Shown in pieces: positions 4,265 through 61,364 of a stretch of 64,000 nt of DNA. The notes beneath the pieces are model-generated. The model was not told where the DNA came from and did no database searches. It saw nothing but the letters and a program-made list of their open reading frames with translations. How positions within the stretch are numbered: position 1 is the first letter of the stretch; every line of letters starts with the position of its first letter. The translations under genes and the position numbers were made by a program. The DNA comes from an uncultured delta proteobacterium. Its GTDB lineage: Bacteria > Myxococcota_A > Polyangia > Polyangiales > Polyangiaceae. Location of the stretch: positions 1,888,001-1,952,000 of the forward strand of contig CAWAIF010000003.1 of the NCBI GenBank assembly GCA_963782055.1. The letters are read 5' to 3'.

Positions 4265-6022
4265 ATGTACGATCTGAAGATCCGAGGAGGCACGGTGGTG
4301 GACGGCACGGGCGCGCCGGGGGTGCGCGCCGACGTGGCCGTCAAGGATGGCCGCATCGTGGAGGTGGGCCGCTGCGACGGCGCCGCCACCCGCACCGTGG
4401 ACGCCGAGGGCGCGCTGGTGACGCCCGGCTTCGTGGACCTGCACTGCCACTACGACGGCCAGGTCTCCTGGGACGCCGATCTCCTGCCCTCGTCGGCGCA
4501 CGGCGTGACGACGGTGGTGCTCGGCAACTGCGGCGTCGGCTTCGCCCCGGTGCGCGAGGCCGACCGCGACGCCCTCGTCGCGCTGATGGAGGGCGTGGAG
4601 GACATCCCCGGGTCGGCGCTCGCGGAGGGCCTGACCTGGGACTGGGAATCCTTTGCACAATACATGGATGCGCTCGATCGCCGGCCGCACGCGATCGACT
4701 ACGCGCTGCAGGTCCCGCACGACGCGCTGCGCGTGTTCGTCATGGGCGGCCGCGCCATCGCGGGCGAGGCGGCGCGCGAGGACGACGTGGCGAAGATGCG
4801 CGCCCTGCTGCGCGAGGCGCTCGAGGCGGGCGCCGCGGGCTTCAGCACCGGGCGCACCGACAACCACCGCTCGGTCACCGGTGCGGCGACGCCCTCGTCG
4901 GAGGCGACGGCGGCGGAGCTCGCCGGCATCGCGAAGGCGTTCGAGGGGCTGGGGCACGGCGTCTTGCAGGCGGTGAGCGACTTCGACATGGCCGTCGGGC
5001 CGGAGCGCTTCGACGGCGAGTTCGACGTGCTGGAGGCGATGGCGGAGGCCGCGGGCCACCCCCTCTCCATCTCGGTCATGCAGCGTGACATGGAGCCCGG
5101 CCAGTGGAAGCGCATCCTGGAGCGCATCGAGAAGGCGGACGCGCGGGGCGTGACCATGCGCGCGCAGGTGGCGGTGCGCGCCATCGGGGTGCTGCTCGGC
5201 CTGGAGGCCACCTTCCACCCCTTCATGGGCTTTCCCACCTACAAGGCCGTGGCCGACCTGCCGCTGGAAGAGCGCGTTCGCAAGCTCCGCGAGCCGGAGG
5301 TTCGGGCGCGCCTGCTCGGGGAGACGTCCGACCCGGTGGCGGGGGACGGCAGCCCCATCCCGCCGCTCGCCGACCAGCTCCTCGCGCGGCTGGAGATGGT
5401 GTCGCTGCGCCTCTTCCGCCTGGGCGCGCGGCCGGACTACGAGCCCAAGCTGGACGCCTCCATCGGCGCGGAGGCCTACGCGCGCGGCGTCTCGCACCTG
5501 GGCGCGGTGCTCGACGCCCTGCTGGAGGACGGCGGGCGCGAGCTGCTCTACTTCCCGCTCTACAACTACACCGAGATGTCGCTCGACAACGTGCGCACCA
5601 TGATGGGCCACCCGCTCGCGCTGCTGGGCCTGAGCGACGGCGGCGCGCACGTGGCGACGGTGTGCGACGCCAGCTTCCCCACCTTCCTGCTCTCGCACTG
5701 GGTGCGCGACCGGGATCACGATCGGCTGGGCATGGAGCAGGCGGTGCGGATGATGACGCGCGATCCGGCGCGTTACCTCGGCCTCGCCGATCGCGGCGTC
5801 GTCGCGCCCGGCATGCGCGCCGACCTCAACGTGCTGGACCCCGCGCAGCTCGCCCTCTCGCGGCCGCGCCTGGTGCGCGATCTGCCGGCGGGCGGGCGGC
5901 GCTTCCTGCAGGACGCCACCGGCTACCGCGCCACGGTCGCCGGCGGACACGTCATCGCCGAGGGCGGCAAGCTGACCGGCGAGCGCCCCGGCCGGCTGGT
6001 GCGCCTCGGCGGCCGCGCGTGA
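4265..6022 (+). CDS. N-acyl-D-amino-acid deacylase-family amidohydrolase
   Basis: [35 protein letters not shown] and ADLNV motifs. Confidence 0.9.
4653..4664 (+). repeat. Dispersed motif TTGCANAATACA, copy 1 (TTGCACAATACA)
   Basis: Exact match inside the amidohydrolase CDS, read as TTT GCA CAA TAC, codons that are rare here. Confidence 0.8.
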
Positions 6023-6060
6023 GACTTGCACCCTGCACGGTTTCCCGTAACGATCCTCCC

Positions 6061-7026
6061 ATGAGGGCTTTCGTTGGCTGGGCAGTCGCGGCCGCGCTCG
6101 CGGTCTCGGCGTGCGGCGGCGCCACCGAGACCGATCTCTACACCCCGGGTGGCGGGGGCAGCGACGGCGGCGGCGGCGGGGGTGACGGCGGCGGCGGGGG
6201 AGACGGTGGCGGCGGGTGCGATCCCGCGCAGTGCAACCTGACCGCCCCGGCGGGCTTCACCCTGGTGGCCTACGCGCGCAACCGCGACAACGCCTGCCCG
6301 GCCGGCTGGACGACCACCAACCCGGTGTCCGACCCGACCGTCCAGGACGGCGCGTGCAGCTGCGCGTGCCAGGTGGGCGATCAGCCGGACTGCGGCACCG
6401 GGACGATCACCCGCCCGTACGACTACGGCGTCAGCGCCACGTGCGATCAGCAGGGCCTGTCGCTGACGGGCAACTCCGGCGGCTGCAGCACCACCGGCAA
6501 CTACTCCGTCGTGCTCGCCACCCACATCGAGGTGGACCCGCCGCCGCCCACCGGCGGCTCGTGCACCTTCGCCCCCACGCCCGATCTGAAGAAGGTCAGC
6601 GCCATGTCGGCGCGCCTCTGCCAGCCCGCGCCGAGCTGCTCGGGCGCGCTGTGCAAGCCGCCCGCGGGCTTCGCCGTCTGCGTCCAGGCCGACGGGGACG
6701 TGGACTGCCCCGCCGGGTTCCCCGCCAAGCACACGGTGGGCAGCGAGCCGCAGCTCGACTGCACCGGCTGCTCCTCCACCTGCGCCGTCACCGCCAAGTG
6801 CGAGGGGACGCTGAGCTTCTTCACCGACACCGCGTGCAACGACAACCAGGTGGACATGACGGCCGACGGAACCTGCGGCGCCAAGCCGTCCGGCGGCGTC
6901 TACCAGTACCGCTCGTACAGGTACACGGGCACCGCGCAGGGCGTGACGTGCGGCGGCGATCCCGGCGCCGCCAAGGCGGACGCCAGCCTCGCCAATCAGA
7001 AGACGGTCTGCTGCCGCGGGCAGTGA
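6061..7026 (+). CDS. Cys-rich secreted lipoprotein with Gly/Asp linker
   Basis: Signal peptide with lipobox (VSAC), GGGGSDGGGGGGDGG linker and more than 20 Cys. Confidence 0.8.
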   Translation: MRAFVGWAVAAALAVSACGGATETDLYTPGGGGSDGGGGGGDGGGGGDGGGGCDPAQCNLTAPAGFTLVAYARNRDNACPAGWTTTNPVSDPTVQDGACSCACQVGDQPDCGTGTITRPYDYGVSATCDQQGLSLTGNSGGCSTTGNYSVVLATHIEVDPPPPTGGSCTFAPTPDLKKVSAMSARLCQPAPSCSGALCKPPAGFAVCVQADGDVDCPAGFPAKHTVGSEPQLDCTGCSSTCAVTAKCEGTLSFFTDTACNDNQVDMTADGTCGAKPSGGVYQYRSYRYTGTAQGVTCGGDPGAAKADASLANQKTVCCRGQ

Positions 7027-7047
7027 GGGGTCGGCCGACGGCGCCGG

Positions 7048-8982
7048 TCAGCTCGGCGGCTTCTCAATCTCGTGGTTGCGGTAGGCCTGCACCAGCCGCT
7101 CCAGGCCAGCGACCTCCTCGCGCAGCTCCGCGCCGCGCGCCGTGTCCCCCACGCGGCGCGGCGGGTCGTTGCGGCGCAGCTCCTGCACCGTCGGCACGAT
7201 GTCCGCGCCGTGCTCGATGGCGAAGTCGATGGACTCGAAGTGGTGGTGTCGCGCCAGCGCGGTGCGCTCGGCGTCGATGATGAGGGTGTAGCCGTGGTCG
7301 CCGTAGGCCTCGGAGAAGGCGCCGTCGATGGTGACGGCCAGCCCGCTCCGCTTGAGCGGTGACTCGCCCTGCTCCACCTTCACCGGCACGTGCCCGTTGA
7401 CGATGAGCACCCGCTCGGGGTCCACGCCGAACTCGACGGCCATCCGCCGGCAGAACGCAGGGTCATGGATGAGGGAGAAGTAGGGGTTCTTCGTCTCCTT
7501 GTGGGTGGCCTTGTCCTCGACGAAGTACGTCTCGAAGGTGGCCATGCGGTCCTTGCCGAACATGGGGGAGCGCGCGCCGGCCCACAGGTAGTAGAGCAGG
7601 TCCACGTCGGCCTGGGCGCGATCGCGGAAGGCGCGCCGCACCGCGTTGTCGATGGCGTCGAAGAGCGCCCTGCCGCGCGCGGGCTCGCCATCCACCTGCA
7701 TGTCCAGCAAGCCGCCCTCGGCGTCGACCGGGACGCACCCGTGGAAGACCAGGTTCTCGTCGCGTGTCGTGTACGCGCACCCGCGCTCGAGCAGGTAGCG
7801 CATGTCGCGCCAGAGGGTGGGGCTGTCCAGGAAGGAGCGCTCCATCAGGCGGATGCACCGCTCCTCGGCCTCGGAGAGGCGGTAGGGGTCGCTCCAGTCT
7901 ACCGTCGGGAAGGCGCGGTCGAGCAGCGGGTAGGTGCGTCCCTCGATGGTCACGGTGCCCGCCTGCGGGTCGATCGCGCCGAGCAGGTTGCGGTGCTCCA
8001 TCGCGAAGTGGGGGTTGCGGAGGATCGTCTGGGCCTCCAGCTTGAACTGGAGGATCGCCGCGGCCTTCTGCATGCGGGCGAGGAGGAGCGGCGAGCGCAG
8101 ATCCTGCCCCTTCGAGCGGAAGCGCTCCGCCGGGTCGTCGGCGTAGGCCTCCCGCGCGAGCAGCTCCAGCGGCTCCACCGGCAGGCCGTAGCCCTCCTCG
8201 AGCTGCGCGATGCGCCCGTAGCGCAGCGAGATGCGTATCACCGTCGCGATGAGCGCCCGCTGCCCGAGGCACGCGCCCATCCACTCCACGTCGTGGTTGC
8301 CCCAGGTGACGGTGACGTTGCGCTGGTGACGGATGGCGTCGATCACGCGGTCCAGGCGGGGGCCGCGATCTCCCAGATCGCCCGCCACGATGAGCTCGTA
8401 GGACGCGAACGATCGCAGGGCGTGGGCGGCCGCGCGGAGCAGCTCCACGCCGCCGTCGTCCTCCACGTAGGGCAGCAGCAGGCCGTCGGCGTAGGCCGGG
8501 TCGCGCTCGACGTCGGGTGAGACGAGCAGCTCGGCGAAGAGCTCGGCGTAGGGCTCGGGGAAGACGCGCTGGGCGTGGCGCAGGCTGTAGCGCGCGAGCA
8601 GCACGCGCAGCAGCTCGAACTCCCGCAGCAGGGTGAGCTTCACGTACTCCTCACGCTCGGCCACGGAGCTCATGTTCGCCGAGAGCCGCTCCCACGCCTC
8701 GCGGGGGTAGTAGACGAGGTTGAGCAGCGTCGTGCGCGCGCGGTCGTCCAGCCTCCCGGCGAAGACGCGCTCCACCAGCGGCCGCAGGCTGCCCGAGCCG
8801 TTGCGCAGGATGTGCTCCAGCTTCTGGAACTCGCCGTGCACGTCGCTGACGACGTGGATGGTGCCGCGCGGGAGCGTGGCGACGGCGCGCAGGTGGGCGA
8901 TCTCCGCGAGCGCCGACTCCACCGTCGGGAAGCGGTAGCTCAGCGCGCGCAGGTATTGCGACGAAGACGCTTCGTGGTTCAT
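7048..8982 (-). CDS. fbp: Fructose-1,6-bisphosphatase class III
   Basis: LPRGTIHVVSDVHGE, GDLGDRGP, WGNHD, FHGCVP, FGKDRMATFE, NGHVPVK and IDGAFSEAY are class III FBPase motifs; 644 aa. Confidence 0.9.
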   Translation of the reverse strand: MNHEASSSQYLRALSYRFPTVESALAEIAHLRAVATLPRGTIHVVSDVHGEFQKLEHILRNGSGSLRPLVERVFAGRLDDRARTTLLNLVYYPREAWERLSANMSSVAEREEYVKLTLLREFELLRVLLARYSLRHAQRVFPEPYAELFAELLVSPDVERDPAYADGLLLPYVEDDGGVELLRAAAHALRSFASYELIVAGDLGDRGPRLDRVIDAIRHQRNVTVTWGNHDVEWMGACLGQRALIATVIRISLRYGRIAQLEEGYGLPVEPLELLAREAYADDPAERFRSKGQDLRSPLLLARMQKAAAILQFKLEAQTILRNPHFAMEHRNLLGAIDPQAGTVTIEGRTYPLLDRAFPTVDWSDPYRLSEAEERCIRLMERSFLDSPTLWRDMRYLLERGCAYTTRDENLVFHGCVPVDAEGGLLDMQVDGEPARGRALFDAIDNAVRRAFRDRAQADVDLLYYLWAGARSPMFGKDRMATFETYFVEDKATHKETKNPYFSLIHDPAFCRRMAVEFGVDPERVLIVNGHVPVKVEQGESPLKRSGLAVTIDGAFSEAYGDHGYTLIIDAERTALARHHHFESIDFAIEHGADIVPTVQELRRNDPPRRVGDTARGAELREEVAGLERLVQAYRNHEIEKPPS

Positions 8983-9025
8983 GTCGCGCCCAGGAGAAGC
9001 AACTTTCGTCCCGGACGCAAGGCTC

Positions 9026-10138
9026 TCACGCCGCCTTGCGCTCGTCCTCCACCTCCGCCCGCGTGCGCGGCAGGGCTCCCGGGTAGTTCTGCTGGACCCA
9101 GGCGATCATCTTCTCGCGCGCGTCGCATCGCAGGGTCCACTGGTCGCTGGAGTCCTTGGCGCTGACCAGCAGGCGGACCAGCATGGTGTGCTCGGTCGCG
9201 TCGGTCACGGTGACGCCGCCCGCCTTCTTGTCCCAGAGCTCGTGCGCCTCCAGGAAGCGCATGAACTCCTTGCGCATGACCTCGACAGGCACCGAGTAGT
9301 CCAGGTGCAGCTCCACGGTGCCGAGCAGCTCGTTCGCGCCGCGTGTCCAGTTCTGGAAGGGCTTGTCGATGAAGTAGTTCACCGGGACGATCAGCCGCCG
9401 CAGGTCCCAGATCTTGACCACCACGTAGGTGAGGGCGATCTCCTCGATGGTCCCCCACTCCCCCTCCACGATGACCACGTCGTCGACGCGGATGGGCTGC
9501 GCGACGGCGATCTGCACGCCCGCGAGGACTGTGGCGATGCTCCGCTGCGCGGCGAAGCCCAGGACGATGCCGGCGACGCCCGCCGAGGCGAGCAGGCCGG
9601 TCCCGATGTTGCGCACCGTCTGGAAGGTCATCAAGGCGAACGCCAACGTGACCAGGATGACGGCGAAGCCGCCGATGTTCCGCAGCCCGCGGAGCTGCGT
9701 GTAGACCGATCGCGCCTCCACCGTCTCCTCCCCGCCGGTGTCGTAGCGGCTGGTGACGTAGTCCTCGATGACGCGGAGCAGCCGCAGGCAGGTCCACCCC
9801 GCGGCGATGATGATGACCACCAGCACGGCGTGGTGGAGCGTATCGGTCTGCAGGGAGAGGAGCGGGACGACGAGCTCCACCGCGATCGCGGGCAGGAGCA
9901 GCCGCAGCGGCTTGGGCATGTGCTGGACGACCATGTCGTCCAGCACCGTCGTCGTCTTCTTGGCCCACCGCTGCGTCGCGCGCAGGATGATCCAGGCGAC
10001 GATGCGGCCGGCGACGAACGCGGCCAGCAGGAGGCCCACCGACCACGCCAGATCGCCGAGCTGGAGCCCGCGCACGGAGTGGACCGCGCCCTGAATCTTC
10101 TCGGGGACGGCCAGGGCCGCCATGGATCGCATCGTCAT
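9026..10138 (-). CDS. mscS: Small-conductance mechanosensitive channel (MscS family)
   Basis: TM helices, GLLASAGVAGIVLGFAAQ, PIRVDDVVIVEGEWGTIEEI and FQNWTR; AGGAGG RBS before the ATG at 10138. Confidence 0.9.
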   Translation of the reverse strand: MTMRSMAALAVPEKIQGAVHSVRGLQLGDLAWSVGLLLAAFVAGRIVAWIILRATQRWAKKTTTVLDDMVVQHMPKPLRLLLPAIAVELVVPLLSLQTDTLHHAVLVVIIIAAGWTCLRLLRVIEDYVTSRYDTGGEETVEARSVYTQLRGLRNIGGFAVILVTLAFALMTFQTVRNIGTGLLASAGVAGIVLGFAAQRSIATVLAGVQIAVAQPIRVDDVVIVEGEWGTIEEIALTYVVVKIWDLRRLIVPVNYFIDKPFQNWTRGANELLGTVELHLDYSVPVEVMRKEFMRFLEAHELWDKKAGGVTVTDATEHTMLVRLLVSAKDSSDQWTLRCDAREKMIAWVQQNYPGALPRTRAEVEDERKAA

Positions 10139-10165
10139 CGTGAGCCTCCTTCGGCATGCACCCTC

Positions 10166-10180
10166 GCAAACCGTGCACCG
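10166..10180 (-). promoter_or_regulatory. Possible sigma-54 (-24/-12) promoter for mscS-fbp
   Basis: Minus-strand CGGTGCACGGTTTGC has the GG-N10-GC spacing and lies just upstream of the RBS. Confidence 0.4.
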
Positions 10181-10271
10181 TGGCGCAAGCCAATCGCGGC
10201 CGCGGGTCGCGTGAGGCGCGCGCGAGACCGCCCCCGGCGAGGAGGTACGCGGAGTGCATCGTGTCGTCGCC

Positions 10272-12671: not shown

Positions 12672-12695
12672 GCCGGGCCCGCCCGTGGCCGGATC

Positions 12696-13400: not shown

Positions 13401-13625
13401 GGCTCCTGTCTGCTCAACCCCCTGCTAGCCGGTGCACCTCACGTTGCACCAGGCTCAAGTGTGCACCGTCGTCACTCCCCTGCAAAGGCTTCGTCACCGC
13501 TGGCGGCGCGACCCACCGTCCGATTGAACGCCGTAAACCCGGGACGTCGCCGCATTCCTGGGCCTTTCGACGCGGGCGGCGGCTGGTGCCGGTGTGGGTC
13601 CTTACACCACAAATCGGTCATCGCC

Positions 13626-15893
13626 CTAGAAGCGAAGGCACGCCAGGATGTTCACGTAGTCGTCCGTCCACGGCCGGAGCGAGGAGGGCGGCAGGTCGCG
13701 CCAGTCCGGGCCCGTCGCCGCGCGCGCCTGCTGCTCGGTACGCGCGAGCAGGATCCACCGCGAGGGCGCCTTGCCGTCGCGTGCGAGCAGCTCGCGCGCG
13801 CGGTCGGTGCCACCCTCGTCCTGCCGCTCGACGGCGCGCCAGCCGTCGGCCTTCGCCACCGCCGCGACGACGCGACCCAGATCGAGGTAGCGGTTGGACA
13901 CGTTCATCAGGATGCTCGCGCCGGGCGTGAGCTTGCGCGCGTACATCGCGAACGCCTCGCGCGTGAGGAGGTGGGTCGGCACCACGTCGCTCGTGTACGC
14001 GTCGAGCACCAGGAGGTCGAAGGAGGCGTCGGGCGCCCGCGCCAGCTCCACGCGCGCGTCACCGAGCACCACCTTGATCGCCGCGCCCCGCGCGCGCGCG
14101 TCGCCCACGAAGGTGAAGAGGCTCGGATCCTCCGCGATGCGGCGCACGACAGGATCGATCTCGTAGAAGGTGAAGGACTGGCCGGCGTCCGCGTAGGTGG
14201 CGAGGGACGCCACGCCCAGGCCGATGAGCGCGGCGTGCCGGGGCGCGATGCGAGACAGCGCCTCGCCGCCGGGGCCCGTCGCGTGGTAGTAGGCGCCCGC
14301 CACGCGCCGCCGCGCCGGGTCGGTGGACTGCAGGCCGTGGATGGTGGTGCCCTGGACGTAAAGGTGACGCGCGTGAGCGCGGTCCTCCAGCACGCCGTGC
14401 GTGGCGAAGAAGCTGCGGCCGCGAAAGAGCACCGAGCTCCCGGCGCGACCGACGTCGGGCGCGGCGAGCACCAGGAGCACGACCCACGCGAAGCGCGCCA
14501 CCCGCGCGCGCATGCTCCACGCGACCACGCACGCGACCGTCACCGCCTGCGCGACGACGAAGAGGCGCAGCGTGTCGCTCCCGCCGCGCGTGGCGCGCAC
14601 GGCGACGGCCACCAGGCCGGCCAGGGCCAGCGGCAGAAGCACCCCCCTGGCGACGGCCCGCAGCCGGCGGCGCGCGGCGTGCGGGTCCGGCGCGCCCTCC
14701 ACCTCCCGCACCACCTCGGCGAAGTCGCGCGCGGGCGCGTGGCCGGCGGAGAAAGGCATCCACACGCGCACCGCGCACGCGAGCGCCACCACCAGCGGGT
14801 ACTCCCAGAGCGCCGGGAACACGAGCGGCGCGACGATGGCGTTGAAGACGCCGCCCAGCGCGCCGCCGAAGGACACCGCCAGGTAGAAGGCCGTCAGGTG
14901 CTCCGGCGGAGGCTTGCGGCGCGCCAGCTCGCCGTGGCACGCCAGGGCGACGACGAAGAACGCGCCGAAGTGGACGAGCGTCGCCAGCCAGAGCAGCCTG
15001 TCGGCGCCGACGGTCATGGTGAAGACGAGGGCGAGCACCGCGCCGGGCATCCAGGCCACCGCCCGCGCATGCGCGATGCGCGGCCGCGCGGAGAAGGGGA
15101 TGATGAAGGCGACGAGGTAGAGCGCGAGGGGCACCACCCAGAGCAGCGGGACGGGCGCGACGTCGGTCGTGACGAAGGTGGTGACGCCGAGCAGCAGGCT
15201 GGAGGGCACGAAGGCGAGGACGACCCACCGCGCGACGTCCCGCGCCGGGATGGGTGCCGCCATGGCCGAGGGCGCGCTCGCCGGCGAGGGCGAAGGTGAA
15301 GGCGCGCGCTGCCGGAGCAGCGGCCAGCCGCACAGGACAATCATGGCCGCCGCGGCGACGTAGGCCGCCGACCACCCGCGCGCCTGCGCGCGCAGCGTGG
15401 TGAGCGGCTCCACGAGCACCGGGTAGGCGAGGAGCGCGAGCAGGCTCCCGGCGTTGCTTGCAGAATACAAGGGATACGGGTCCGCGCGACCGTCGCTCGC
15501 CCGGTGGAGCCAGCGCCCGAGGAGCGGGCCGGTGGCCGACAGCGCGACGAAGGGCAGGGCGACCCGGCGGGCGAGGTGCAGCAGCAGCCAGCCCATCGGG
15601 AAGGCCTCGGCGGGCGGCGGCGACCCGACCGGGGGCCGCAGCGGCAGCGCGGCGAGCGCCAGCCCGAGCAGCGCGGCGTGCACCAGCGGCTGCGCGCGCG
15701 CCGGGACGCGCGTCGCGACGGCGTGGGCGTACGCGTACCCCACGAGCAGCGACACCTGGAAGAAGAGCAGGCAGGTGGCCCACACCTCCGGCGCCCCGCC
15801 GAGCACGGGAAGCAGCATCTTGCCCACCACCGGCTCGACGGCGAAGAGCAGCGCGGCGGAGAGAAAGGTGGTGAGCGCGAAGACGGCTCGCAC
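13626..15893 (-). CDS. Fused membrane / spermidine-synthase-like SAM-binding protein
   Basis: Many TM helices, DPYPLYSASNAGSL and CHGELA; C-terminal IGLGVASL, YEIDP, GDAR, DLLVLDAY, HLLTREA and WTDDY. Confidence 0.9.
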   Translation of the reverse strand: MRAVFALTTFLSAALLFAVEPVVGKMLLPVLGGAPEVWATCLLFFQVSLLVGYAYAHAVATRVPARAQPLVHAALLGLALAALPLRPPVGSPPPAEAFPMGWLLLHLARRVALPFVALSATGPLLGRWLHRASDGRADPYPLYSASNAGSLLALLAYPVLVEPLTTLRAQARGWSAAYVAAAAMIVLCGWPLLRQRAPSPSPSPASAPSAMAAPIPARDVARWVVLAFVPSSLLLGVTTFVTTDVAPVPLLWVVPLALYLVAFIIPFSARPRIAHARAVAWMPGAVLALVFTMTVGADRLLWLATLVHFGAFFVVALACHGELARRKPPPEHLTAFYLAVSFGGALGGVFNAIVAPLVFPALWEYPLVVALACAVRVWMPFSAGHAPARDFAEVVREVEGAPDPHAARRRLRAVARGVLLPLALAGLVAVAVRATRGGSDTLRLFVVAQAVTVACVVAWSMRARVARFAWVVLLVLAAPDVGRAGSSVLFRGRSFFATHGVLEDRAHARHLYVQGTTIHGLQSTDPARRRVAGAYYHATGPGGEALSRIAPRHAALIGLGVASLATYADAGQSFTFYEIDPVVRRIAEDPSLFTFVGDARARGAAIKVVLGDARVELARAPDASFDLLVLDAYTSDVVPTHLLTREAFAMYARKLTPGASILMNVSNRYLDLGRVVAAVAKADGWRAVERQDEGGTDRARELLARDGKAPSRWILLARTEQQARAATGPDWRDLPPSSLRPWTDDYVNILACLRF
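15458..15469 (+). repeat. Dispersed motif TTGCANAATACA, copy 2 (TTGCAGAATACA)
   Basis: Exact match, antisense to the host CDS (read TTG TAT TCT GCA AGC). Confidence 0.8.
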
Positions 15894-23923: not shown

Positions 23924-24272
23924 GATGCCCCTCCGGGCGCCATGCTCGGGCGCGTGCTCGCTCTCGCGCGTGCCGCCCGTGTGTGCATGATGCAAGGACT
24001 CCGGCACGCACGAGAGCTTGCGCGCGCGCCCTGCGCGTGGCGCCCCTCCCCCGGATGTCGCGCTCCGCGCGCCATCGGGGAGGCTGGTGCGCCGCACGCG
24101 GCGGACCTCGGCGACGCCCTCCGGCTGTCGGACTGGACGGGCCGCGGTGCTGCTCATTTCCGGCGGTGAGCGCTGCACCTCGGCCCGGGGATGCGCGCGA
24201 GCGCCCGGGGCTAGGGTAGGGGAGGTGTCACCATCGCAGCCGGCGTCGGCCAGGTTCCCCAACGTGGTCGCT

Positions 24273-27978: not shown

Positions 27979-29073
27979 ATGACGCTCGCGCGCGGGGACC
28001 GGGTGGCCCTGCTCACCTCTGGCGGCGACGCGCCCGGCATGAACGCGGCGCTTCGCGGCGCGGCGCGGGTGGGCGCGGAGCTGGGCCTGGAGGTGGTGGG
28101 GGTGGAGGACGGCTACGTGGGGCTGATGGAAGGGCGCCTCGTGCCGCTGGACCTCCACCCGCTGGACGACGCCGCCCGTCGCGGCGGCACGGTCCTCGGC
28201 ACGGCGCGCAGCAAGGTCTTCCCCACGCCGGAGGGGCGCGCCCGCGCCTGCGAGGTGATCGCGCGGGAGCGGCTGCGCGCCCTCGTCGTGGTGGGCGGCA
28301 ACGGATCGCTCGCCGGCGCGCGCACGCTGCTCGACGCGAAGACCCACGAGGGCGGCGCGCTGGCGGTGGCGGGGCTGCCGGCGTCCATCGACAACGACCT
28401 CGCGTGCACCTCGATGGCCATCGGCGTGGACACCGCGATGAACACCATCGTGGAGGCGTGCGATCGCATCCTGGACACCGCGAGCGCGCACCGCCGCACC
28501 TTCTTCGTGGAGGTGATGGGGCGGGACATGGGCTACCTGGCGATGACCGCCGGCATCGCCGCGGGGGCCGATGCGGTGCTGGTGCGCGAGACGGACGAGG
28601 AGGAGGGGGCGCTGGTCGACCGGGTCGTGCGCTCGATGCAGCGGGCGTATGCCGGGCCGTCGCCGCGGCGGCACCTGCTGGTCCTCAAGGCGGAGGGCGT
28701 GAAGATGGATGTGGCGCGACTCAAGGCGCTGGTGGACGCGCGCATCGCGAGCTCCCTCCCGGACGTGGACACGCGCGTGACGGTGCTCGGCCACGTGGTG
28801 CGCGGCGGGACACCCACCGCCTTCGACCGGCTGCTGGGCGCGCGCCTCGCCAACGTGGCGGTGCGCGAGCTCGCCCGCGGCAACAGCGGCTTCATGACCG
28901 GGTGGGTCGGCCCCGGCGTGGGCGGCGCGGCGAGCGAGGACGATCCCTACGTGGTGACCAGCCCCATCGGCGAGGTGCTCGCCGAGACGGAGCGCATGCA
29001 CCGCGGGGAGTCGCCCCTCTCGGCGTGGCGCAAGCGGATCTACGCCGAGGTGGAGACGATCCTGGATCGTTGA
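27979..29073 (+). CDS. pfkA: 6-phosphofructokinase (PfkA family)
   Basis: LTSGGDAPGMNAA, GGTVLGTAR, GGNGS, PASIDND, EVMGR and LGHVVRGG. Confidence 0.93.
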   Translation: MTLARGDRVALLTSGGDAPGMNAALRGAARVGAELGLEVVGVEDGYVGLMEGRLVPLDLHPLDDAARRGGTVLGTARSKVFPTPEGRARACEVIARERLRALVVVGGNGSLAGARTLLDAKTHEGGALAVAGLPASIDNDLACTSMAIGVDTAMNTIVEACDRILDTASAHRRTFFVEVMGRDMGYLAMTAGIAAGADAVLVRETDEEEGALVDRVVRSMQRAYAGPSPRRHLLVLKAEGVKMDVARLKALVDARIASSLPDVDTRVTVLGHVVRGGTPTAFDRLLGARLANVAVRELARGNSGFMTGWVGPGVGGAASEDDPYVVTSPIGEVLAETERMHRGESPLSAWRKRIYAEVETILDR

Positions 29074-29077
29074 CGGG

Positions 29078-30139
29078 TCAAGCGAATACGCGCTGGAAGA
29101 ACCACGCCATGCCGGCGATGACCAGCGCCAGGCTGGCGATCTTGGTGCCGGTGGTGCGCGCCCACGCGTTCTTGCGGGCGCGGTAGATGAGCGGGAGCAT
29201 CGCCGCGACCACCAGGAGCTGCCCGATCTCCACGCCGGAGTTGAAGGCGAAGAGGGCCGCGGGGATCTGGGGGCGCGGCAGGTGCAGGTCGACCAGGCCG
29301 CCGGCGAAGCCGAAGCCGTGGACGAGGCCGAAGGGGAAGGTGATGCGCCAGCGCCTGTCCGGGGCGAGATCGAAGACGTCCTCCACGCCCACGTAGACGA
29401 TGGACAGCGCGATGAGGGGCTCGACGATGCCCGAGCGGACGGAGAAGATGCCGAGCACCGCCACGCCCAGGCTGATGGAGTGGGCGATGGTGAAGGCGGT
29501 GATGGTGGCGACGAGATCCCGCAGGCGCCCGCCGAGGAGCAGGACGCCGAAGAGGAAGGCGAGGTGGTCGTAGCCGGTGAGGATGTGCAGCACGCCGGTG
29601 CGGATCATCCCCAGGAAGGAGGCGCTCGCGGTGACGTTGCCCGCGGTGGCGACGTGGTTGCCGAGGGTCGCGAGGAAGGTGTGGTCCTTGCCGTCCGCGC
29701 CGGTGATGGTGGCGAGGTGGCGGTGGCCCGCGGGGAAGCGGGAGACGAAGGCGAAGTCGAAGGAGAGGCCGCCCGCCGGACCGTCGCACGCGTAGTCGGC
29801 GTCGACGGTGACGGCGTCGCCCTGGCCGAGCTTCGCGTCGCGCAGCGCGCCCTCGCACGCCTTGCCCGCGGCGCGGACGTGGACGCCGTCCACCAGCTCG
29901 CGCCCGAGGACGTCGTGGTCGGCGTCGAGCTCGGCCTGCGAGAGGCGCCCGTCGTGGTCGGCGTCCAGGTCGGGCATCGCGGTGGCGAGCGCGGCCTCGG
30001 CGAAGACGAGGGAGGCGTGGACGGTGGCGCCCTCCACGCGGTACGTCCCCTGCGAGAGGTCCACCTGGTGCGCGCTCGCGACGCGCGCGAGGGAGAGCAC
30101 GAGGAGGGTGACGAGGAAGGGGAGGAGAACGCGCTTCAC
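29078..30139 (-). CDS. HupE/UreJ-family membrane protein with N-terminal extracytoplasmic domain
   Basis: Signal ending ASAH, EF-hand-like DADHDGRLSQAE, HILTGYDHLAFL, TAFTIAHSI, FGLVHGFGFA and FNSGVEIGQ. Confidence 0.9.
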   Translation of the reverse strand: MKRVLLPFLVTLLVLSLARVASAHQVDLSQGTYRVEGATVHASLVFAEAALATAMPDLDADHDGRLSQAELDADHDVLGRELVDGVHVRAAGKACEGALRDAKLGQGDAVTVDADYACDGPAGGLSFDFAFVSRFPAGHRHLATITGADGKDHTFLATLGNHVATAGNVTASASFLGMIRTGVLHILTGYDHLAFLFGVLLLGGRLRDLVATITAFTIAHSISLGVAVLGIFSVRSGIVEPLIALSIVYVGVEDVFDLAPDRRWRITFPFGLVHGFGFAGGLVDLHLPRPQIPAALFAFNSGVEIGQLLVVAAMLPLIYRARKNAWARTTGTKIASLALVIAGMAWFFQRVFA

Positions 30140-37194: not shown

Positions 37195-38355
37195 ATGCGC
37201 CGCACCCTCGTCGTCGGGGACCTGCACCTGAGCGCGCACACGCCCCGCGCCGTCGCCGCGGACTTCGCCGCGCTGCTCCGAGCCAGCGCGGGGGCCCGCG
37301 TCGTCATCGCCGGCGACTTCTTCGACCTCTCCGCCGAGACGCCCCGCGTCTCCGCCGACCGCGCCATCGAGACCGGCTTCGGCGCCCACGGAGAGCTCCG
37401 CCGCGCCCTCGCCGAGCACGTGGACGCCGGAGGCGAGCTCGCCTGGCTCGCGGGCAACCACGATCCGGAGATGGGCGGCCGCGGCGCCAGCGAGCGGCTG
37501 CGTGGCGCGCTCGGCCTCGGCGAGGAGACCGCGTCCCGGCTGACCTCGTCGCCCTGGTTCTTGCGCGAGGGAGACCTGCACGTCGAGCACGGCCACCTCT
37601 ACGATCCGGACAACGCCCCCGAGCACCCGCTCGTGCCGCCGCGCGCCAGCCTGGGCGTCCACTTCGTGGAGGACTTCATCGCGCCCACCGGCGCCTACAG
37701 CTACCTCAACGCCAACGACGATACCCCCCTGCGCCTCCTCGTCCACGCCTTCCGCGCCTACGGCCCCCGCGGGCCGGAGGTCGTCGCGCGCTACTTCATG
37801 ACCGCCGCGCGCGCCCTCGCGCGGAGCGGCCCGCGCTTCGCCGGCGAGGGCGAGTGGGAGGCCGGCGAGGCCGAGCTCGACGCCTTCGTCGCGGGGGCCG
37901 GCGTCGACGCCGGCGTCGCCCGCGCGCTCCTGGACGAGCGCGCCACGCCCACCATGCGAAGCTTGCATAATACAATCGCCCGCCTCTACCTCGATCGCGT
38001 GGCGGGCACCGTCACCATCCTCGCCGGCCTGGCGACGCTCGCCGCCGGCCGCCGCCGCGCGGGCGCCGCCCTGGTGGGCCTCGGCGCCGTCGGCCTCGCC
38101 GCGAGCTGGTCGCGCGGACACGATCGCTACGGCGGCACCGTCGCCGCCCGGCTGGAGGACGGCGCGCTCCGCGTCGGTCGTGCGAGCGGCGCGTCCCTCG
38201 TGGTGATGGGCCACGCCCACGTCGCGACCCAGCGCGACGGCTACGCCAACACCGGCAGCTTCGCCTTCCCGCGCGGGGCCCCGGGGCGCCCCTACCTGGA
38301 AATCGAGGGCCCGCCGGAGCGCCCTCGCGCCGCCCGTCGCTTCTGGAGCGCGTAG
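37195..38355 (+). CDS. Calcineurin-like metallophosphoesterase with C-terminal TM hairpin
   Basis: GDLH, GDFFD, GNHD, EHGH, GHAH and NTGS. Confidence 0.88.
   Translation: MRRTLVVGDLHLSAHTPRAVAADFAALLRASAGARVVIAGDFFDLSAETPRVSADRAIETGFGAHGELRRALAEHVDAGGELAWLAGNHDPEMGGRGASERLRGALGLGEETASRLTSSPWFLREGDLHVEHGHLYDPDNAPEHPLVPPRASLGVHFVEDFIAPTGAYSYLNANDDTPLRLLVHAFRAYGPRGPEVVARYFMTAARALARSGPRFAGEGEWEAGEAELDAFVAGAGVDAGVARALLDERATPTMRSLHNTIARLYLDRVAGTVTILAGLATLAAGRRRAGAALVGLGAVGLAASWSRGHDRYGGTVAARLEDGALRVGRASGASLVVMGHAHVATQRDGYANTGSFAFPRGAPGRPYLEIEGPPERPRAARRFWSA
37963..37974 (+). repeat. Dispersed motif TTGCANAATACA, copy 3 (TTGCATAATACA)
   Basis: Exact match, read as TTG CAT AAT ACA (a different frame from copies 1, 4 and 5). 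Confidence 0.8.
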
Positions 38356-38373: not shown

Positions 38374-39300
38374 TCACGAGCTGCGCGGGTAGATCAGCAC
38401 GTACTCGTGCGGCCGAGGCCGGAACAGCACCGCCTTCCCGCCCAGCTTCGCGCCGTCGTAGTGGGCGTACCACTCCATCTTCTTCCACGAGTCCGTCGGC
38501 TCGATGAACTCCGGCACGTACGTGTCCAGCTCGGCGTACCGGCCGTGCGTGTATTCTGCAAGCTTCGGCCCGAAGGCCCAGGCGGCGCGCTCCGGCGGCG
38601 GGGCGAGGTCGTTGTGCAGCGCCCCGCCGTAGGTCACCACCACCTTGCCCGCGCCCGACGCCGCCGCGCGGTCGCGCGCGACCATCGCCTCGCTCTGCGT
38701 CGCCGTGAGCCGGGCGATGAGCGAGAGCGACGCGACGATGGCGTCCGCCCCCGCGTCGTTCACCGCGTCCATGTCCGCGCACGTCGGCCGGAGCAGGTCC
38801 GGGACGATCCCCAGCGCGTGCGCCGCGTTCCCCATCTGCACGTACTCATTCTGGTCCTGCGGCGCCTGCTTCGACGTGACCACCTTCTGCTTCTGCCGCA
38901 CCGCCTGCGTCTTCGCCTTGCATCCCTTCGGAGGCATCATCAGCTCGACCAGGAGGTCCGAGGCGCGCCCGTGAAGCAGGGGCAGCAGCGTCGTGGTGAA
39001 GCGCCTGGCCGACGACGCCACCTTCGCGCCCTTCTGCGCATGAGCTTCCCCCACCGACAGCACCTCCGGCTGCTCGTCCAGCACGGTCAGCAGCGCGTCC
39101 TGGGGCTTGTCGAACGCCAGGCAGCCGAGCTCCCCGCACGGAACGCCGCCGTGGGGGCCGGGCGCCGCCACGGCGGCGGACGACGCGGCCGGGCCGGCGG
39201 AGGCCGAGGCGCTCACCGTCGCCGGCGACGCCGCCCCGTCCTTCTTCCCGCACGAGAGCGCCAGCGCGACCGCGACCAGACCGACCGACCATCCCCGCAT
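38374..39300 (-). CDS. Lipoprotein, possibly ChaN/EreA/TIKI-like fold
   Basis: Lipobox ALSC; VGEAH, LLVE and YGGALH motifs. Confidence 0.65.
   Translation of the reverse strand: MRGWSVGLVAVALALSCGKKDGAASPATVSASASAGPAASSAAVAAPGPHGGVPCGELGCLAFDKPQDALLTVLDEQPEVLSVGEAHAQKGAKVASSARRFTTTLLPLLHGRASDLLVELMMPPKGCKAKTQAVRQKQKVVTSKQAPQDQNEYVQMGNAAHALGIVPDLLRPTCADMDAVNDAGADAIVASLSLIARLTATQSEAMVARDRAAASGAGKVVVTYGGALHNDLAPPPERAAWAFGPKLAEYTHGRYAELDTYVPEFIEPTDSWKKMEWYAHYDGAKLGGKAVLFRPRPHEYVLIYPRSS
38550..38561 (-). repeat. Dispersed motif TTGCANAATACA, copy 4 (minus strand TTGCAGAATACA)
   Basis: Plus strand reads TGTATTCTGCAA; read CTT GCA GAA TAC in the host gene. Confidence 0.8.
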
Positions 39301-41074: not shown

Positions 41075-41076
41075 GG

Positions 41077-49106: not shown

Positions 49107-50105
49107 ATGGCGGCGACGACCCGGCGCTGGGAGCGTATCAAGGGCGTGATGCGCCTCGCCCTGCTCGGCGGCGGGCTGGCGCTGATCGTCTACCTGGTGC
49201 ACTCCGCCGGCCCGGCGAAGGTGTGGGCCGCGCTCACCGCCGCCGGCCCGTGGATCCCGCTCATCGTCCTGCTGGAGGCCGCCATCCTGGCCACCGACAC
49301 CGCGGCGTTCGCCACCATCCTCGGGCCGAGGCGCGGCAGCGTCTCCCTGAAGGGGTGGCTGCGCTCCAGCGCCATCTCGTACGTCGGGCTGGTGCTCCTG
49401 CCGGCGGGGCGCACGGCGAGCGAGGTGGGCCGCGCGACGGTGATTGCACAATACACGGGTTCGCTCAAGTCGGCCACGGCCGGCGCGCAGCTCCAGGCCG
49501 CCGCGCTCATCGCCGACGGCGCCATCTCCGGCGTCGTCGCGCTGGGCATCTACCTCATGATGGGCGACAAGCAGCACCTGCCCGCCATCCTCGCCGGCAA
49601 CTTCGTACTGGCCGCCGGCCTCGGGATGGGCCTGGAGCTGCTCCTTCACAACAAGCGCCTGGCGTCCTGGGTGCGCAAGAAGCTCCCGCGCCTCGCCAAG
49701 GGCGCGGCCGAGGGCGACGAGCACCCGCACGCGCTCGGCGTCGCGCCGACAGCGTGGAGCATGGTCGGACGCCTCTTGCAGGTGCTGCAGTACGGCATCG
49801 CGGTCAAGGCCGTGGGCGGGAGCTTCGGCCTGGCGGGCGCGCTCGTCGCCCACGGCGTGCACATGGTGGGCGCCACCGCGGGCATGGCGGTGCCCAACCA
49901 GGTGGGCGTGGCCGACGGCGCCTACGTCGCCTTCGCCGACGTGCTTGGCTTCGGCGACGCGCCGGCGCGCGCGCTCTCCATCGCGCTCGTCCTGCGCGCC
50001 GCGCAGCTCGCCTTCGCCGCGGCCTGCCTGCTCCTGGCGGCGCTCACCCGGGAGGCCGTCGCCAAGGCCGTGCCGGCGACCGCCCAGCAGACCGACGGCG
50101 CGTGA
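49107..50105 (+). CDS. Lysylphosphatidylglycerol-synthase TM / flippase-like membrane protein
   Basis: About 8 TM helices; LLPAGRTASEVGR and VPNQVGVADG. Confidence 0.8.
   Translation: MAATTRRWERIKGVMRLALLGGGLALIVYLVHSAGPAKVWAALTAAGPWIPLIVLLEAAILATDTAAFATILGPRRGSVSLKGWLRSSAISYVGLVLLPAGRTASEVGRATVIAQYTGSLKSATAGAQLQAAALIADGAISGVVALGIYLMMGDKQHLPAILAGNFVLAAGLGMGLELLLHNKRLASWVRKKLPRLAKGAAEGDEHPHALGVAPTAWSMVGRLLQVLQYGIAVKAVGGSFGLAGALVAHGVHMVGATAGMAVPNQVGVADGAYVAFADVLGFGDAPARALSIALVLRAAQLAFAAACLLLAALTREAVAKAVPATAQQTDGA
49444..49455 (+). repeat. Dispersed motif TTGCANAATACA, copy 5 (TTGCACAATACA)
   Basis: Exact match, read as ATT GCA CAA TAC. Confidence 0.8.
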
Positions 50106-51775: not shown

Positions 51776-51787
51776 GGCGCTGTCCTC

Positions 51788-53158: not shown

Positions 53159-53169
53159 TTCGACACTCC

Positions 53170-54399: not shown

Positions 54400-54521
54400 G
54401 TGCGGCTCCCATTTCCGGCCGGCAGCTCCGAAGCCACCGGCCTCATGGACATACGACCCGCCAGCGTGGCCGCCTTAGCGGCCCCCCCGTCATTTTGTAA
54501 AGACGAAGGATCTCGCGGGCT

Positions 54522-55343: not shown

Positions 55344-55451
55344 GGGGCGAGGACTTTACTGCGAAAACCGCCAGGCTGTATGCTCCCCCGCCTTGCCCGC
55401 CGTCCCGCCCCCTCGAGCCCGCCGTCCTGCCTGCCCCGCGAGGGAGCCACG

Positions 55452-57986: not shown

Positions 57987-58023
57987 AGGGCGGGCGCACC
58001 GAGAAGACCCGCTGAAGGCGTGG

Positions 58024-58309
58024 ATGTGCGTGAGTGCCGCCTCGCAGGGCGCCGGCACGGGTCACCTTGCCTACCGGTTGTCGGTCCGCGGACTGGAAGA
58101 CTTCCGCTCCCTGTCGGCGGCGCCCCCGGGCGCGGACGTGGCCTATGACATCACGCTGGGGAAGCAGATCGCCGGCCTTCGCCTCGTGGGCGGCTCCCTG
58201 GAGCTGCTCGATGCCACCCCGCCCGGCGCGGGAGTGTGCACGGTGCACGTGACGTGGGACAATCAGGGCGTGGCCTTCGTGGACACGAGCAACCACGCCC
58301 ACTGCCTCG
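58024..58309 (+). pseudogene. Fragment of an unknown gene
   Basis: Coding-like frame (...AYRLSVRGLEDF...YDITLGKQIAGL...) that runs abruptly into an unrelated fragment. Confidence 0.35.
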
Positions 58310-58780
58310 CGGGCCGGCACGACGACGGCCTTCTACTCCGGCGACATCACGGCTTCCGGCGACTGGGAGGATTGCATCAAGGATGACGCCCTCATCCAGA
58401 TCGGGTGGTATTGCTACAACTCAAGCGGGACACTCCACGAGGTGGGGTTGCTCAGGGCAAATGATTGGGGTCTGTACGACATGCTCGGTAACTCGATCGA
58501 GTGGGTGCAAGATGGCTACCACGACCTGCCGGCCGACCCCGTAACCGACCCATACACGCCACAGCCTGGGTACGAGGCGACCAGTCGAGGTGGGGCATAC
58601 ACGCTTTGGGCGAGCAGGGAACGCGCGGCGAGTCGGAGCTTGGCGCCGCCGTTTGCACTTTCCGGCTTCCGTCTCGCGCGAACCCTCGCGTCCGGTGAAG
58701 ACGCCGGACCTGACCCGTTCCCCGACGCCGGCTACGACTGGGAGGCGGGGGCGAGTGCGCTGGACGCATCGCCGGAATGA
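58310..58780 (+). pseudogene. C-terminal fragment of a formylglycine-generating-enzyme (SUMF1/FGE-sulfatase) family protein
   Basis: RAGTTTAFYSG, GWYCYN, ANDWGLYDMLGN..EW, RGG and GFRLART; no N-terminus or start; lower GC. Confidence 0.75.
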
Positions 58781-58832
58781 CCGCCCGTGACGGCCTTGGA
58801 GCGTCTGGTCGCCACCCGGCCCCGGCGACCCC

Positions 58833-60152
<1,320 letters not shown>

Positions 60153-60189
60153 GCCGGGCGCCCGGACGAGAATACGTCCTTCGCGGGCG

Positions 60190-61272
60190 TCAGCGGCAAT
60201 CGTAGCGCTGGTAGACGACGCCGTTGTCGGTCATCTCGGCGTGGAGCACGCCCCCGCCGTCCAGCACCACGATCTCCTTGAACGTCTCCTCCGGCATGGT
60301 GTTGGCGGCGAACTGCACGTTGCCCAGCGGGTGCCCGTCGGACTCGGCGAGGCAGTAGAGCAGCACCATGGGGTTCTGGTCGCCGGGGGCGATCTCGCTG
60401 GCGAAGTAGATGACGCCCTGCCTGTCGGAGTCGAGGGCGAGCAGGTTGGCGACGTGCACGCCGAGCAAGAGCTCCCGGGTGAAGAGCGCGTCGCCGGTGG
60501 CGCGGGTGATGGCGCTGACCCACACGCGGCCCGCGGCGGCGTCGGTGATCCCCGCCGAGAGATACAGCTTGCCGTCGCGCGAGGGGCGCCCGGGGATCTC
60601 GCTGCGGTCGCCCGCGTTGCCGCTGGTGTCGCCCAGCTTCACCAGCGGGCCGTGCTCGCGCTCGGCGTAGACGTCGTCGCCGTCGGTGAAGAGGCCGGTG
60701 ACCGCGCCGCCCTCGTCGATGCCCTTGCCTTCGAGCGTCAGCGTCCCGCGGTCCTTGCCGTGCGGGCCGTAGAGGCGGACCTGCCTGTCGCCCAGCCGGT
60801 CCAGCACGGCGACGGTGCCGTCCTTGGCCACCGCGACGTCCTGCGCGCCGTCCAGATCGATGTCGGTGCTGCCCTCCACCGTCCCGTCCGGGCCGACGTG
60901 CACGATGCGGTGGTTGACCTGATCGAGGATGTCCACGCCGCCCTTGCCGTCGGCGGCGAGGCTCATCGGACCCTCCGGGTTGGCCTCCTTCGGGCGCTTG
61001 TGCCCCAGCTCGCCCTTGCCCGATCCCCAGCCGAAGGTGGCGAACTTGCCGCTCGTCGGTGACGGGGAGGTGTCGGCGTCGGCCATCGCCGCCAGCGCGC
61101 TCGTCCCCGTCGCCGGCGTCGAAGGTCGTCCGGCGGGTGGGAGATCGCGCGTGCTTGCGACGGTGCTCGCGACAGGTCGCGAGTCGCGATGAGCCGCCGT
61201 GGATCGCCAGATCCACACGATCACCGCGAGGAGGATCACCGCGGCCACGACGGCGACGACGCGCTTGGGCAT
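60190..61272 (-). CDS. Membrane-anchored beta-propeller (NHL/SGL-like) protein
   Basis: N-terminal TM helix; EGPMSLAAD...ILDQVNHRI and QDVAVAKDGTVAVLD blade repeats. Confidence 0.75.
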   Translation of the reverse strand: MPKRVVAVVAAVILLAVIVWIWRSTAAHRDSRPVASTVASTRDLPPAGRPSTPATGTSALAAMADADTSPSPTSGKFATFGWGSGKGELGHKRPKEANPEGPMSLAADGKGGVDILDQVNHRIVHVGPDGTVEGSTDIDLDGAQDVAVAKDGTVAVLDRLGDRQVRLYGPHGKDRGTLTLEGKGIDEGGAVTGLFTDGDDVYAEREHGPLVKLGDTSGNAGDRSEIPGRPSRDGKLYLSAGITDAAAGRVWVSAITRATGDALFTRELLLGVHVANLLALDSDRQGVIYFASEIAPGDQNPMVLLYCLAESDGHPLGNVQFAANTMPEETFKEIVVLDGGGVLHAEMTDNGVVYQRYDCR

Positions 61273-61352
61273 GGGCGTCACGGTGAGCACAAAGCGGACC
61301 GCCACGCCACACGGAGTTTCGGGGCCAGCTCGTCGGGCGCGCGGCGATCTAG

Positions 61353-61364
61353 TTGCAGAATACA
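61353..61364 (+). repeat. Dispersed motif TTGCANAATACA, copy 6 (intergenic, extended dyad TAGTTGCAGAATACAACTA)
   Basis: Exact match between divergent genes; TAGTTG/CAACTA arms at 61350-61368. Confidence 0.8.

Follow-up and report, generated by a model that had tools for sequence, protein, structure and literature searches.

A 23-bp palindrome dispersed through genomes of the Polyangiaceae and a candidate MarR-family protein that may bind it

Dyad sites in the window

The DNA considered here (the window) is the whole stretch of 64,000 nt at C3:1,888,001-1,952,000 of the genome of an uncultured delta proteobacterium of the Polyangiaceae (G000; 7.58 Mb in three contigs, 71.7% GC). It contains repeated copies of an AT-rich dyad, in which the half-sites TGYA and TRCA lie 3 bp apart at the centre of a 23-bp palindrome. 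Sites in G000 were scored with a position weight matrix (PWM) trained on its dispersed sites and were counted from a score of 16 upwards. With this cut-off the window holds eight sites, plus one weak site at 58231..58253 (PWM 15.6) that falls below it.

Five of the eight 23-bp sites are inside genes. These are at 4648..4670 (PWM 21.6) in an amidohydrolase gene (4157-6022, plus strand; Pfam Amidohydro_3), at 15453..15475 (PWM 26.2) in a membrane-protein gene (13626-15893, minus strand), at 37958..37980 (PWM 24.4) in a metallophosphoesterase gene (37195-38355, plus strand; assigned by Pfam), at 38544..38566 (PWM 25.4) in the gene 38374-39300 (minus strand) and at 49439..49461 (PWM 22.0) in the gene 49107-50105 (plus strand). 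The site at 61348..61370 (PWM 23.7) separates the divergent genes 60190-61305 (minus strand) and 61468-62358 (plus strand, SH3 domain). The other two, absent from an earlier sequence-only reading of this DNA, are TGCA-CCC-TGCA at 6021..6043 (PWM 18.3), between two co-directional genes, and TGCA-TGA-TGCA at 23978..24000 (PWM 21.1), between convergent genes.

The sequence-only reading had reported six exact copies of a 12-mer, starting at 4653, 15458, 37963, 38550, 49444 and 61353. Their coordinates and strands hold, the 12-mer has no match in 100 dinucleotide shuffles, and no further copy with one mismatch is present in the window. The copy at 61353 is intergenic, and the frames given for the five intragenic ones (F-A-Q-Y, antisense L-Y-S-A, L-H-N-T, L-A-E-Y and I-A-Q-Y, in order of position) are correct. 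As a description of the motif the 12-mer stands in part: it is real, but it is one sub-variant, with 23 copies genome-wide, of the 23-bp palindrome. These copies are 11 plus and 12 minus, so that neither the plus-strand bias nor the replichore-polarised factor suggested from six copies is retained, and the spacing of about 11 kb is not a property of the genome, since the gaps on C3 fit an exponential with a mean of 17 kb (Kolmogorov-Smirnov p=0.41). Six copies of this single sub-variant in 64 kb were equalled in 1 of 300 label shuffles, an unexplained residue. The window gave no Rfam match.

The 23-bp palindrome and its enrichment

The full motif, derived from the variants of the 12-mer, is the palindrome RATNSK-TGYA-NNN-TRCA-MSNATY. 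In G000 the core TGYA-N3-TRCA occurs 450 times, and strong sites (PWM of at least 16) number 427, that is, 322 genic and 105 intergenic. The 6,305 genes of G000 were called with a purpose-built dicodon model, hence the genic and intergenic counts carry the uncertainty of these calls. Three shuffles of synonymous codons gave 5, 11 and 7 sites against the 322 genic ones, which bears out the view that the dyad is of a protein-binding type and has no coding explanation. The spacer is specific: in the series TGTA-Nk-TACA the form with k=3 has 67 copies, and the other values of k up to 12 give 0-13 each. Four-fold degenerate positions within the site are base-specific (A in 206 of 214 cases at core position 3 and in 50 of 96 at position -5), and beyond the 23 bp they revert to a background of about 5% A/T. 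Cores with one mismatch and good flanks are 40, against 249 perfect ones; in shuffled sequences they are 16-17. As far as sequence comparison can establish it, a dyad of TGYA half-sites 3 bp apart, with A/T 4-5 bp further out, is thereby shown to be maintained at about 430 places in G000 despite a strong GC codon bias, and at higher density in relatives.

A general shielding of A/T by a bound protein was rejected because the four-fold positions are base-specific and the background resumes past 23 bp. Insertion of a fixed sequence, as for repetitive extragenic palindromic elements or miniature inverted-repeat transposable elements, was rejected as well, the sites being substitutions for orthologous codons (only ungapped 23-bp windows were scored), and so was local templated spread, adjacent sites being no more similar than random pairs.

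Separately, identical copies of the dyad accompany repeated transposase-like genes at fixed distances (C3:2,227,422; 6,178,123; 6,770,335; 892,888; 4,424,992), hence some insertion elements carry the site.

Phylogenetic range and turnover

Relatives compared with G000 are given G numbers (G005, G031, G045, G072, G074, G400 and so on). The range of the motif was surveyed in 251 genomes of the family, an unselected draw, and in 140 Myxococcota outside it. We considered as enriched any genome with at least 50 matches and at least three times the number found in the reversed control. Over the 251 family genomes the pattern is bimodal by genus. Enrichment was found in 64 of them, in the Labilithrix branch of the Polyangiaceae, where it spans about 24 genera, and in none of the 140 others. 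Among enriched genomes the matches range from 57 to 1378 and the density reaches 530 sites/Mb (G045); the cultured Labilithrix luteola has 201 matches against 32 in the control. No relation was seen between the number of matches and the size of the genome (Spearman -0.09, 26 genomes), and GC content was rejected as a driver of density, as no correlation was seen (rho -0.17, with rough GC estimates on 3.4 kb).

Conservation in relatives, which the sequence-only reading had proposed as a check, holds for one copy and not for two others. The copy at 49444 is an old one, found at the same position, rare codons included, in all 4 aligned congeners (59-64% protein identity). The copies at 37963 and 38550 are species-specific: none of the 5 aligned congeners has the former at its position, although 4 have another site elsewhere in the gene, and the latter is missing in 4 of 4. 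The copies at 4653 and 15458 lie outside the congener alignments. Over 266-272 kb of orthologous coding alignment between G000 and its congener G005 (68% protein identity), the two genomes have 12 and 46 sites, respectively, of which 4 coincide. In the ungapped windows scored, gains of sites appear as clustered substitutions, often synonymous, and residue identity is 55% (304/553) within non-shared sites versus 68% (2,716/4,004) in their flanks. Sites turn over between congeners, and some persist with their rare codons.

Distribution along the chromosome

The chromosome-wide spread that had been expected of the motif is borne out, no 200-kb bin of C3 or C2 being without a site. Genic sites are located mid-gene, the shares of the 105 intergenic sites between divergent, tandem and convergent intervals follow the length of each class, and forward and reverse match counts are nearly equal across enriched genomes. 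Together with the terminus and origin data given below, this placement means that the bulk of the sites are not promoters, are not polarised and have no macrodomain code; a conventional promoter regulon thus does not account for most copies. No functional theme was found among the neighbours of the sites in G000. The word TAnnnT is borne by 325 site strands, of which 166 are antisense and 115 sense in genes, and a TTGAC-like word at promoter distance is present in 15 of the 325, versus 20 at a control offset.

The terminus region (C3:3.2-3.9 Mb) was placed by the GC-skew maximum and by a dif-like site located there, assigned by its pattern. It holds 46 sites versus 39.4 expected. On the origin side of G000 (C2 and the ends of C3) there are 27 sites versus 54 expected, a post hoc comparison. 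In a second chromosome, the complete one of G400 (9.9 Mb), no origin depletion was seen: 67 sampled sites are spread round the whole circle, four of them at most 90 kb from parS. Origin depletion was therefore rejected as a general property, being seen in G000 and not in G400. A matS/MatP-like confinement to the terminus (ter) was rejected, as sites are everywhere on C3 and C2 and round G400, and so was the pattern of nucleoid-occlusion sites (the Noc-binding NBS and the SlmA-binding SBS), as the terminus is not under-represented. A polarised motif of the KOPS or Chi type does not agree with a palindrome of balanced strands. Identity with parS was also rejected, since canonical parS is present separately, with two copies on C2. 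Precisely, sites that are chromosome-wide, on both strands, inclusive of the terminus and away from promoters are not what the Noc, SlmA, matS and polarity readings predict, and the occlusion or macrodomain role proposed earlier fails with them, the second complete chromosome being covered throughout, parS cluster included.

The density of sites differs by codon class, with 15-19/Mb in atypical genes, 22/Mb in the most codon-biased genes and about 57/Mb in the rest. Two site-free stretches were noticed, of 208 kb (C3:1.55-1.76 Mb) and 176 kb (C3:2.23-2.40 Mb), the first of which has a normal GC content and is unexplained.

The candidate MarR protein and its self-operator

Candidate proteins were traced through the genes with promoter-proximal sites. 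For the protein behind the motif, left unnamed by the sequence-only reading, this points to a repressor of the MarR family, with a few promoters also under its control. Its single-copy gene in G000 lies outside the window, at C3:3,529,426-3,529,845 on the minus strand, with a dyad core directly before its own ATG. In a hand-picked panel an orthologue was found in 26 of the 27 enriched genomes and in 3 of the 26 others. In the draw of 251 genomes it is present in 61 of the 64 that are enriched, the three misses being assemblies 83-89% complete, and in 13 of the remaining 187. It is single-copy even in assemblies of 2.8-3.5 Mb, and Labilithrix luteola has both the protein and the motif, with its marR at 8,996,190-8,996,606 (minus strand) of NZ_CP012333.1.

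The core at this gene, here called the self-operator, is 12-19 bp before the start of marR in all 27 enriched genomes read (26 perfect, 1 one-off), 14-15 bp after a conserved TTGAC hexamer, and it is perfect at 68 of the 78 usable loci obtained from the best 80 of 107 GTDB relatives. Among the 13 MarR-positive genomes that are not enriched, 9 are without the self-operator (seven of genus g72, G100 and G044) and two have a one-off operator with borderline enrichment.

The protein has about 140 aa and a single domain, scoring 47.9-50.2 bits against PF01047 in two orthologues (cut-off 24.6). Its profile matches MarR proteins of solved structure (E 4e-14), it scores below the cut-off of every named NCBIfam MarR subfamily, and the database annotation, in the sources listed, is MarR family only. 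Of 29 aligned members 27 have no cysteine, which speaks against a thiol switch. At 24 of 30 loci marR has a divergent neighbour, which we take to be a gene of the fatty-acid hydroxylase/sterol desaturase type. MarR homodimers are described as binding palindromes in consecutive major grooves, with the wings in adjacent minor grooves and the sites often in marR promoters (PMC5487221); this mode of contact fits the layout of the dyad, a core plus outer A/T positions. Taken together, these data indicate that the candidate MarR probably binds the dyad.

Other promoter targets and rejected binders

An 84-aa open reading frame (ORF; C3:6,417,899) has three tandem imperfect sites upstream, where one or two are present in many enriched relatives. 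Members of the subfamily of a small winged-helix ORF (C3:4,539,433) have upstream sites in 13 of 16 genes of enriched genomes and in 0 of 7 of others. We considered each of them as a binder and rejected both: the 84-aa ORF is present in 21 of 25 enriched versus 2 of 25 other genomes, the winged-helix ORF was not found in about a dozen enriched ones, and genes not found in several enriched genomes are targets rather than binders. The tandem sites before two small conserved genes nevertheless show the dyad in use as an operator for some protein. The model of the small winged-helix protein gave no Foldseek match at E<=0.001, and the Atlas gave unnamed clusters only, under 0.9. In several genomes a conserved GCACTT-N4-AAGTGC-like palindrome is also present upstream of this gene (G000 C3:4,539,150-4,539,300).

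LexA was rejected as a binder, no match with a score of at least 11 being present upstream of lexA at 5 loci, where a different element is shared. All five lexA promoters have TTGAC followed by GTTCAGTA, which is likely to be the SOS box of the family, and GTTCAG words are also found upstream of a paralogue of the small winged-helix gene. No Noc-like ParB paralogue was found, ParB being single-copy in 5 of 5 genomes, both motif-rich and motif-poor.

The last rejected binder is a MarR-like gene of about 58 copies in G000 (for example C3:2,924,344 and C2:429,901), which 12 of 25 enriched genomes and none of 40 others have. It has no sites at its ends and was not found in the genomes of highest site density. 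Some of its copies are 98-99% identical, and its leader is conserved, with CCTGTCCCC repeats, a palindrome of about 38 bp and a sigma-54-like promoter. It looks like a mobile cassette, with no transposase in the 1.2 kb or so read around it, and all of the 12 among 65 genomes that have it are motif-rich.

Other dispersed dyads

An unbiased scan of G000 gave a second dispersed dyad, TTGA-N4-TCAA, with 56 genic copies versus none in shuffles and 76 in all. In full it is a 22-bp palindrome, AAYSC-TTGAY-NN-RTCAA-GSRTT, several copies of which give both stop codons of convergent genes; the one copy in the window, at 29065..29086, has the core TTGAC-NN-GTCAA, is unrelated to the first dyad and supplies the TGA stops of two convergent genes in this way. 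It is enriched in G000 (68) and G079 (41) and weakly so in a few other genomes; in six congeners its count is close to background. A cognate regulator was looked for, and none is evident.

G072, which is without the first motif, has 32 copies of TCAG-N5-CTGA and 13 of TTCC-N4-GGAA in 140 kb (C1:400,001-540,000), in longer form GTCAG-N5-CTGAC and TTCCG-N2-CGGAA. Samples of 120-140 kb from G063 and G083 gave no dispersed dyads.

Discussion

The feature is real, clade-wide and apparently undescribed, and it has a strong candidate protein and a proposed function. Its novelty was suggested by the sequence-only reading and is upheld by literature searches, which gave no description (most subscription journals were outside the search, as were supplements). 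The explanation that we favour, for which the comparative sequence evidence gives about an even chance, is that the motif is the operator of a clade-specific, single-copy, autoregulated MarR dimer, which has been multiplied and acts as a sequence-specific nucleoid protein. The MarR would repress its own gene through a weaker-scoring operator and would accumulate until the better-scoring dispersed sites were filled, so that the amount of protein would track the number of sites. In fact, with a self-operator scoring below most dispersed sites, the negative feedback would close only once the chromosome was loaded. As the dispersed sites are costly, interchangeable and not promoters, selection would be on chromosome-wide occupancy itself, and an ordinary repressor may have been co-opted as a sequence-specific nucleoid-associated protein. 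Weak selection could be enough: for an excess of 40- to 260-fold, the scaled advantage of each site would be about ln(excess), or roughly 4-6.

The physical effect of occupancy could be local structuring, a domain barrier or a landing pad for a partner. We would guess first at local structuring, since in two genomes fewer sites than expected have a close neighbour. In a 740-kb sample of G074, gaps shorter than 1 kb are 16 versus 36.6 expected, with a deficit in both halves (P=0.01 for the short-gap deficit in the replicate half; the overall coefficient of variation is not significant), and in G000 gaps shorter than 500 bp are 6 versus 13.1 expected.

Several observations weigh against this explanation. 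The short-gap test covered four genomes, and the deficit is absent in the other two, G045 (24 versus 21.9) and G005 (8 versus 10.4), so even spacing is seen in two of four. The definition of an enriched genome was set after the counts were known. As the MarR and the motif mark one clade, their co-occurrence is to be counted as one evolutionary event and not as 61. G031 and G205 have the MarR and a perfect self-operator yet no dispersed sites, hence protein plus operator is not sufficient for dispersal. In genus g72 the recognition helix is unchanged though both operator and dispersed sites are lacking, and their joint loss is the one item of support that is partly independent. The median score of the self-operator is 15.6 versus 22.1 for the G000 cores, with a matrix that was trained on the dispersed sites of G000. 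The codon bias of marR is average (45th percentile) and its TTGAC-to-TAnnnT spacer of 14-15 bp is shorter than sigma-70 promoters usually have; an abundant protein would not be expected from either.

The same MarR could instead have its dispersed sites as a selected decoy pool, a buffer or DNA-content sensor that sets the level of free repressor and has no structural role. We consider this unlikely. It would suit a site family that persists while its positions turn over, a self-operator scoring below most dispersed sites and a match count independent of genome size, and decoys are described as tuning autoregulated factors in E. coli (PMC8599769). Titration, however, is indifferent to spacing, while close pairs are under-represented in G074 and G000; the enriched genomes range over 57 to 1378 matches, and costs in codons and amino acids at hundreds of loci would be an expensive way to set the level of one repressor. 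To about the same low degree we would credit a binder that is another clade-specific protein, with marR only its most conserved, third target; the findings on the sites themselves would then stand unchanged. Two further genes did resemble cognate binders and proved to be targets, and g72 retains the MarR recognition helix without operator or sites. Against it, among the genes considered, which did not amount to a genome-wide survey of DNA-binding proteins, marR alone was found to have its core in a fixed place throughout the 27 enriched genomes read. The MarR stays single-copy even in assemblies of 2.8-3.5 Mb, ParB is single-copy and the lexA promoters carry their own element; self-binding is, moreover, typical of the MarR family (PMC5487221).

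Quite improbable, in our judgement, is a molecular drive like that of uptake sequences, in which DNA bearing the site would be preferentially taken up, protected or recombined, and sites would accumulate without a benefit of their own. The density in G045 and the possession of different dyads by other lineages would fit, and even spacing would fit too. All 5 enriched genomes tested for comEC have it, but so do 10 of 14 controls, which makes the gene uninformative. The uptake sequences described so far are short elements without symmetry that are recognised at the cell surface, whereas here a symmetric operator is fixed at the promoter of a cytoplasmic repressor and stands in tandem at two more promoters. 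The proteome signature is shared with them, namely copies mostly in ORFs, a frame bias that follows codon usage and scarcity in atypical genes (PMC2817400); one-off sites, on the other hand, are much rarer here than the 765 versus 1,471 of that source, if that row is the one-mismatch class. Local control of transcription by the intragenic sites, as stoperator-like roadblocks or by silencing of cryptic or antisense starts in a very large regulon, has in our opinion a very low probability. The TAnnnT-bearing strands, mostly antisense when in genes, could be read so, as could the scarcity of sites in genes of highest codon bias (22 versus 57/Mb) and the one gene that holds a site at differing positions across species, and a MarR with more than 300 sites by chromatin immunoprecipitation (ChIP) is known (PMC8070244). 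These strands lack a -35 partner, neighbours are without a functional theme, and site-less orthologues are GC-rich there, so a cryptic -10 exists only through the site. Finally, a positional system (nucleoid occlusion, ter macrodomain or replichore polarity), an enrichment driven by a methyltransferase or neutral binding noise would be a most surprising outcome. The post hoc scarcity on the origin side of G000 is in favour of the first, and intragenic sites of ordinary factors are reported as common and inert (PMC9934606). The terminus is, however, neither depleted nor concentrated, G400 has no origin depletion, and the motif is symmetric without strand bias; noise sites would be neither 40-fold enriched nor conserved, and a methyltransferase site would not be expected to be degenerate and 23 bp long, with base specificity at its outer positions and tandem copies at promoters.

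The proposed nucleoid MarR has partial counterparts among known systems. Autoregulated MarR repressors likewise have a palindrome at their own gene and a divergent neighbour (PMC5487221), and the candidate has a MarR domain above the Pfam cut-off; it differs in having hundreds of better-scoring copies within genes and in belonging to no named NCBIfam subfamily. SlmA with SBS, Noc with NBS and MatP with matS, which the proposed MarR would resemble most in action, are also regulator-type proteins with many palindromes, largely in coding DNA of genes that they do not regulate (PMC4726725, PMC3116907), binding being here predicted. They have 23-70 sites (same sources), whereas there are 427 here and up to 530/Mb in relatives; their sites are excluded from or confined to ter and those here are chromosome-wide; and SlmA is a TetR, Noc a ParB and MatP of its own family, while here a MarR has a clear self-operator. 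Uptake sequences of Pasteurellaceae and Neisseriaceae share the hundreds of copies, mostly in ORFs, frame-biased, lineage-specific and scarce in atypical genes (PMC2817400), but the element here is a symmetric 23-bp putative operator tied to the promoter of a cytoplasmic repressor. For E. coli PhoB (PMC9934606) and the MarR PA3458 of P. aeruginosa, with over 300 ChIP sites (PMC8070244), most sites are likewise away from regulated promoters. The intragenic PhoB sites are described as non-conserved noise (PMC9934606), whereas those here are 40-fold over codon shuffles, near-consensus and partly conserved.

The result gives a named candidate protein and an exact site to an unexplained force that rewrites coding sequence over about 24 genera; protein and site are both present in the cultured Labilithrix luteola DSM 27648. 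The sequence-specific chromosome factors described so far have sites in the tens, with a positional code; here there are hundreds or more and no positional code. Two questions become testable, whether intragenic sites of transcription factors are selected or noise and how nucleoid-associated proteins arise from regulators, and genomes with protein and operator only, or in which operator and sites are both lost, are natural controls. It is a tentative and rather doubtful generalisation that Polyangiaceae repeatedly convert repressors into chromosome-wide nucleoid proteins, this MarR tiling the chromosome every 2-17 kb through the rewriting of hundreds to thousands of codons in each genome, with a self-operator that would adjust the protein supply to the number of sites, and the other dyads being used likewise in other lineages and, for the second time, in G000. 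If true, this would be a recurring route for the origin of nucleoid proteins, with the ancestral (operator only, G031), full and lost (g72) states in living genomes.

Additional observations

Replication genes of G000 are scattered, with parS beside dnaN-recF-gyrB-like genes, dnaA 360 kb off and parB near the dif-like site (C2:78-91 kb, C2:449 kb and C3:3.345 Mb). At C2:430,900-433,800 about 2.7 kb are without a called gene; this region has an AT-rich start, two DnaA-type boxes and a copy of the second dyad, gave no Rfam match at E<=0.5, and is possibly an origin region or a long non-coding RNA. The gene at C3:5,807,917 and its four paralogues encode a basic Ala/Lys/Arg-rich protein of 153 aa with very high codon bias and no Pfam match, possibly histone-like.

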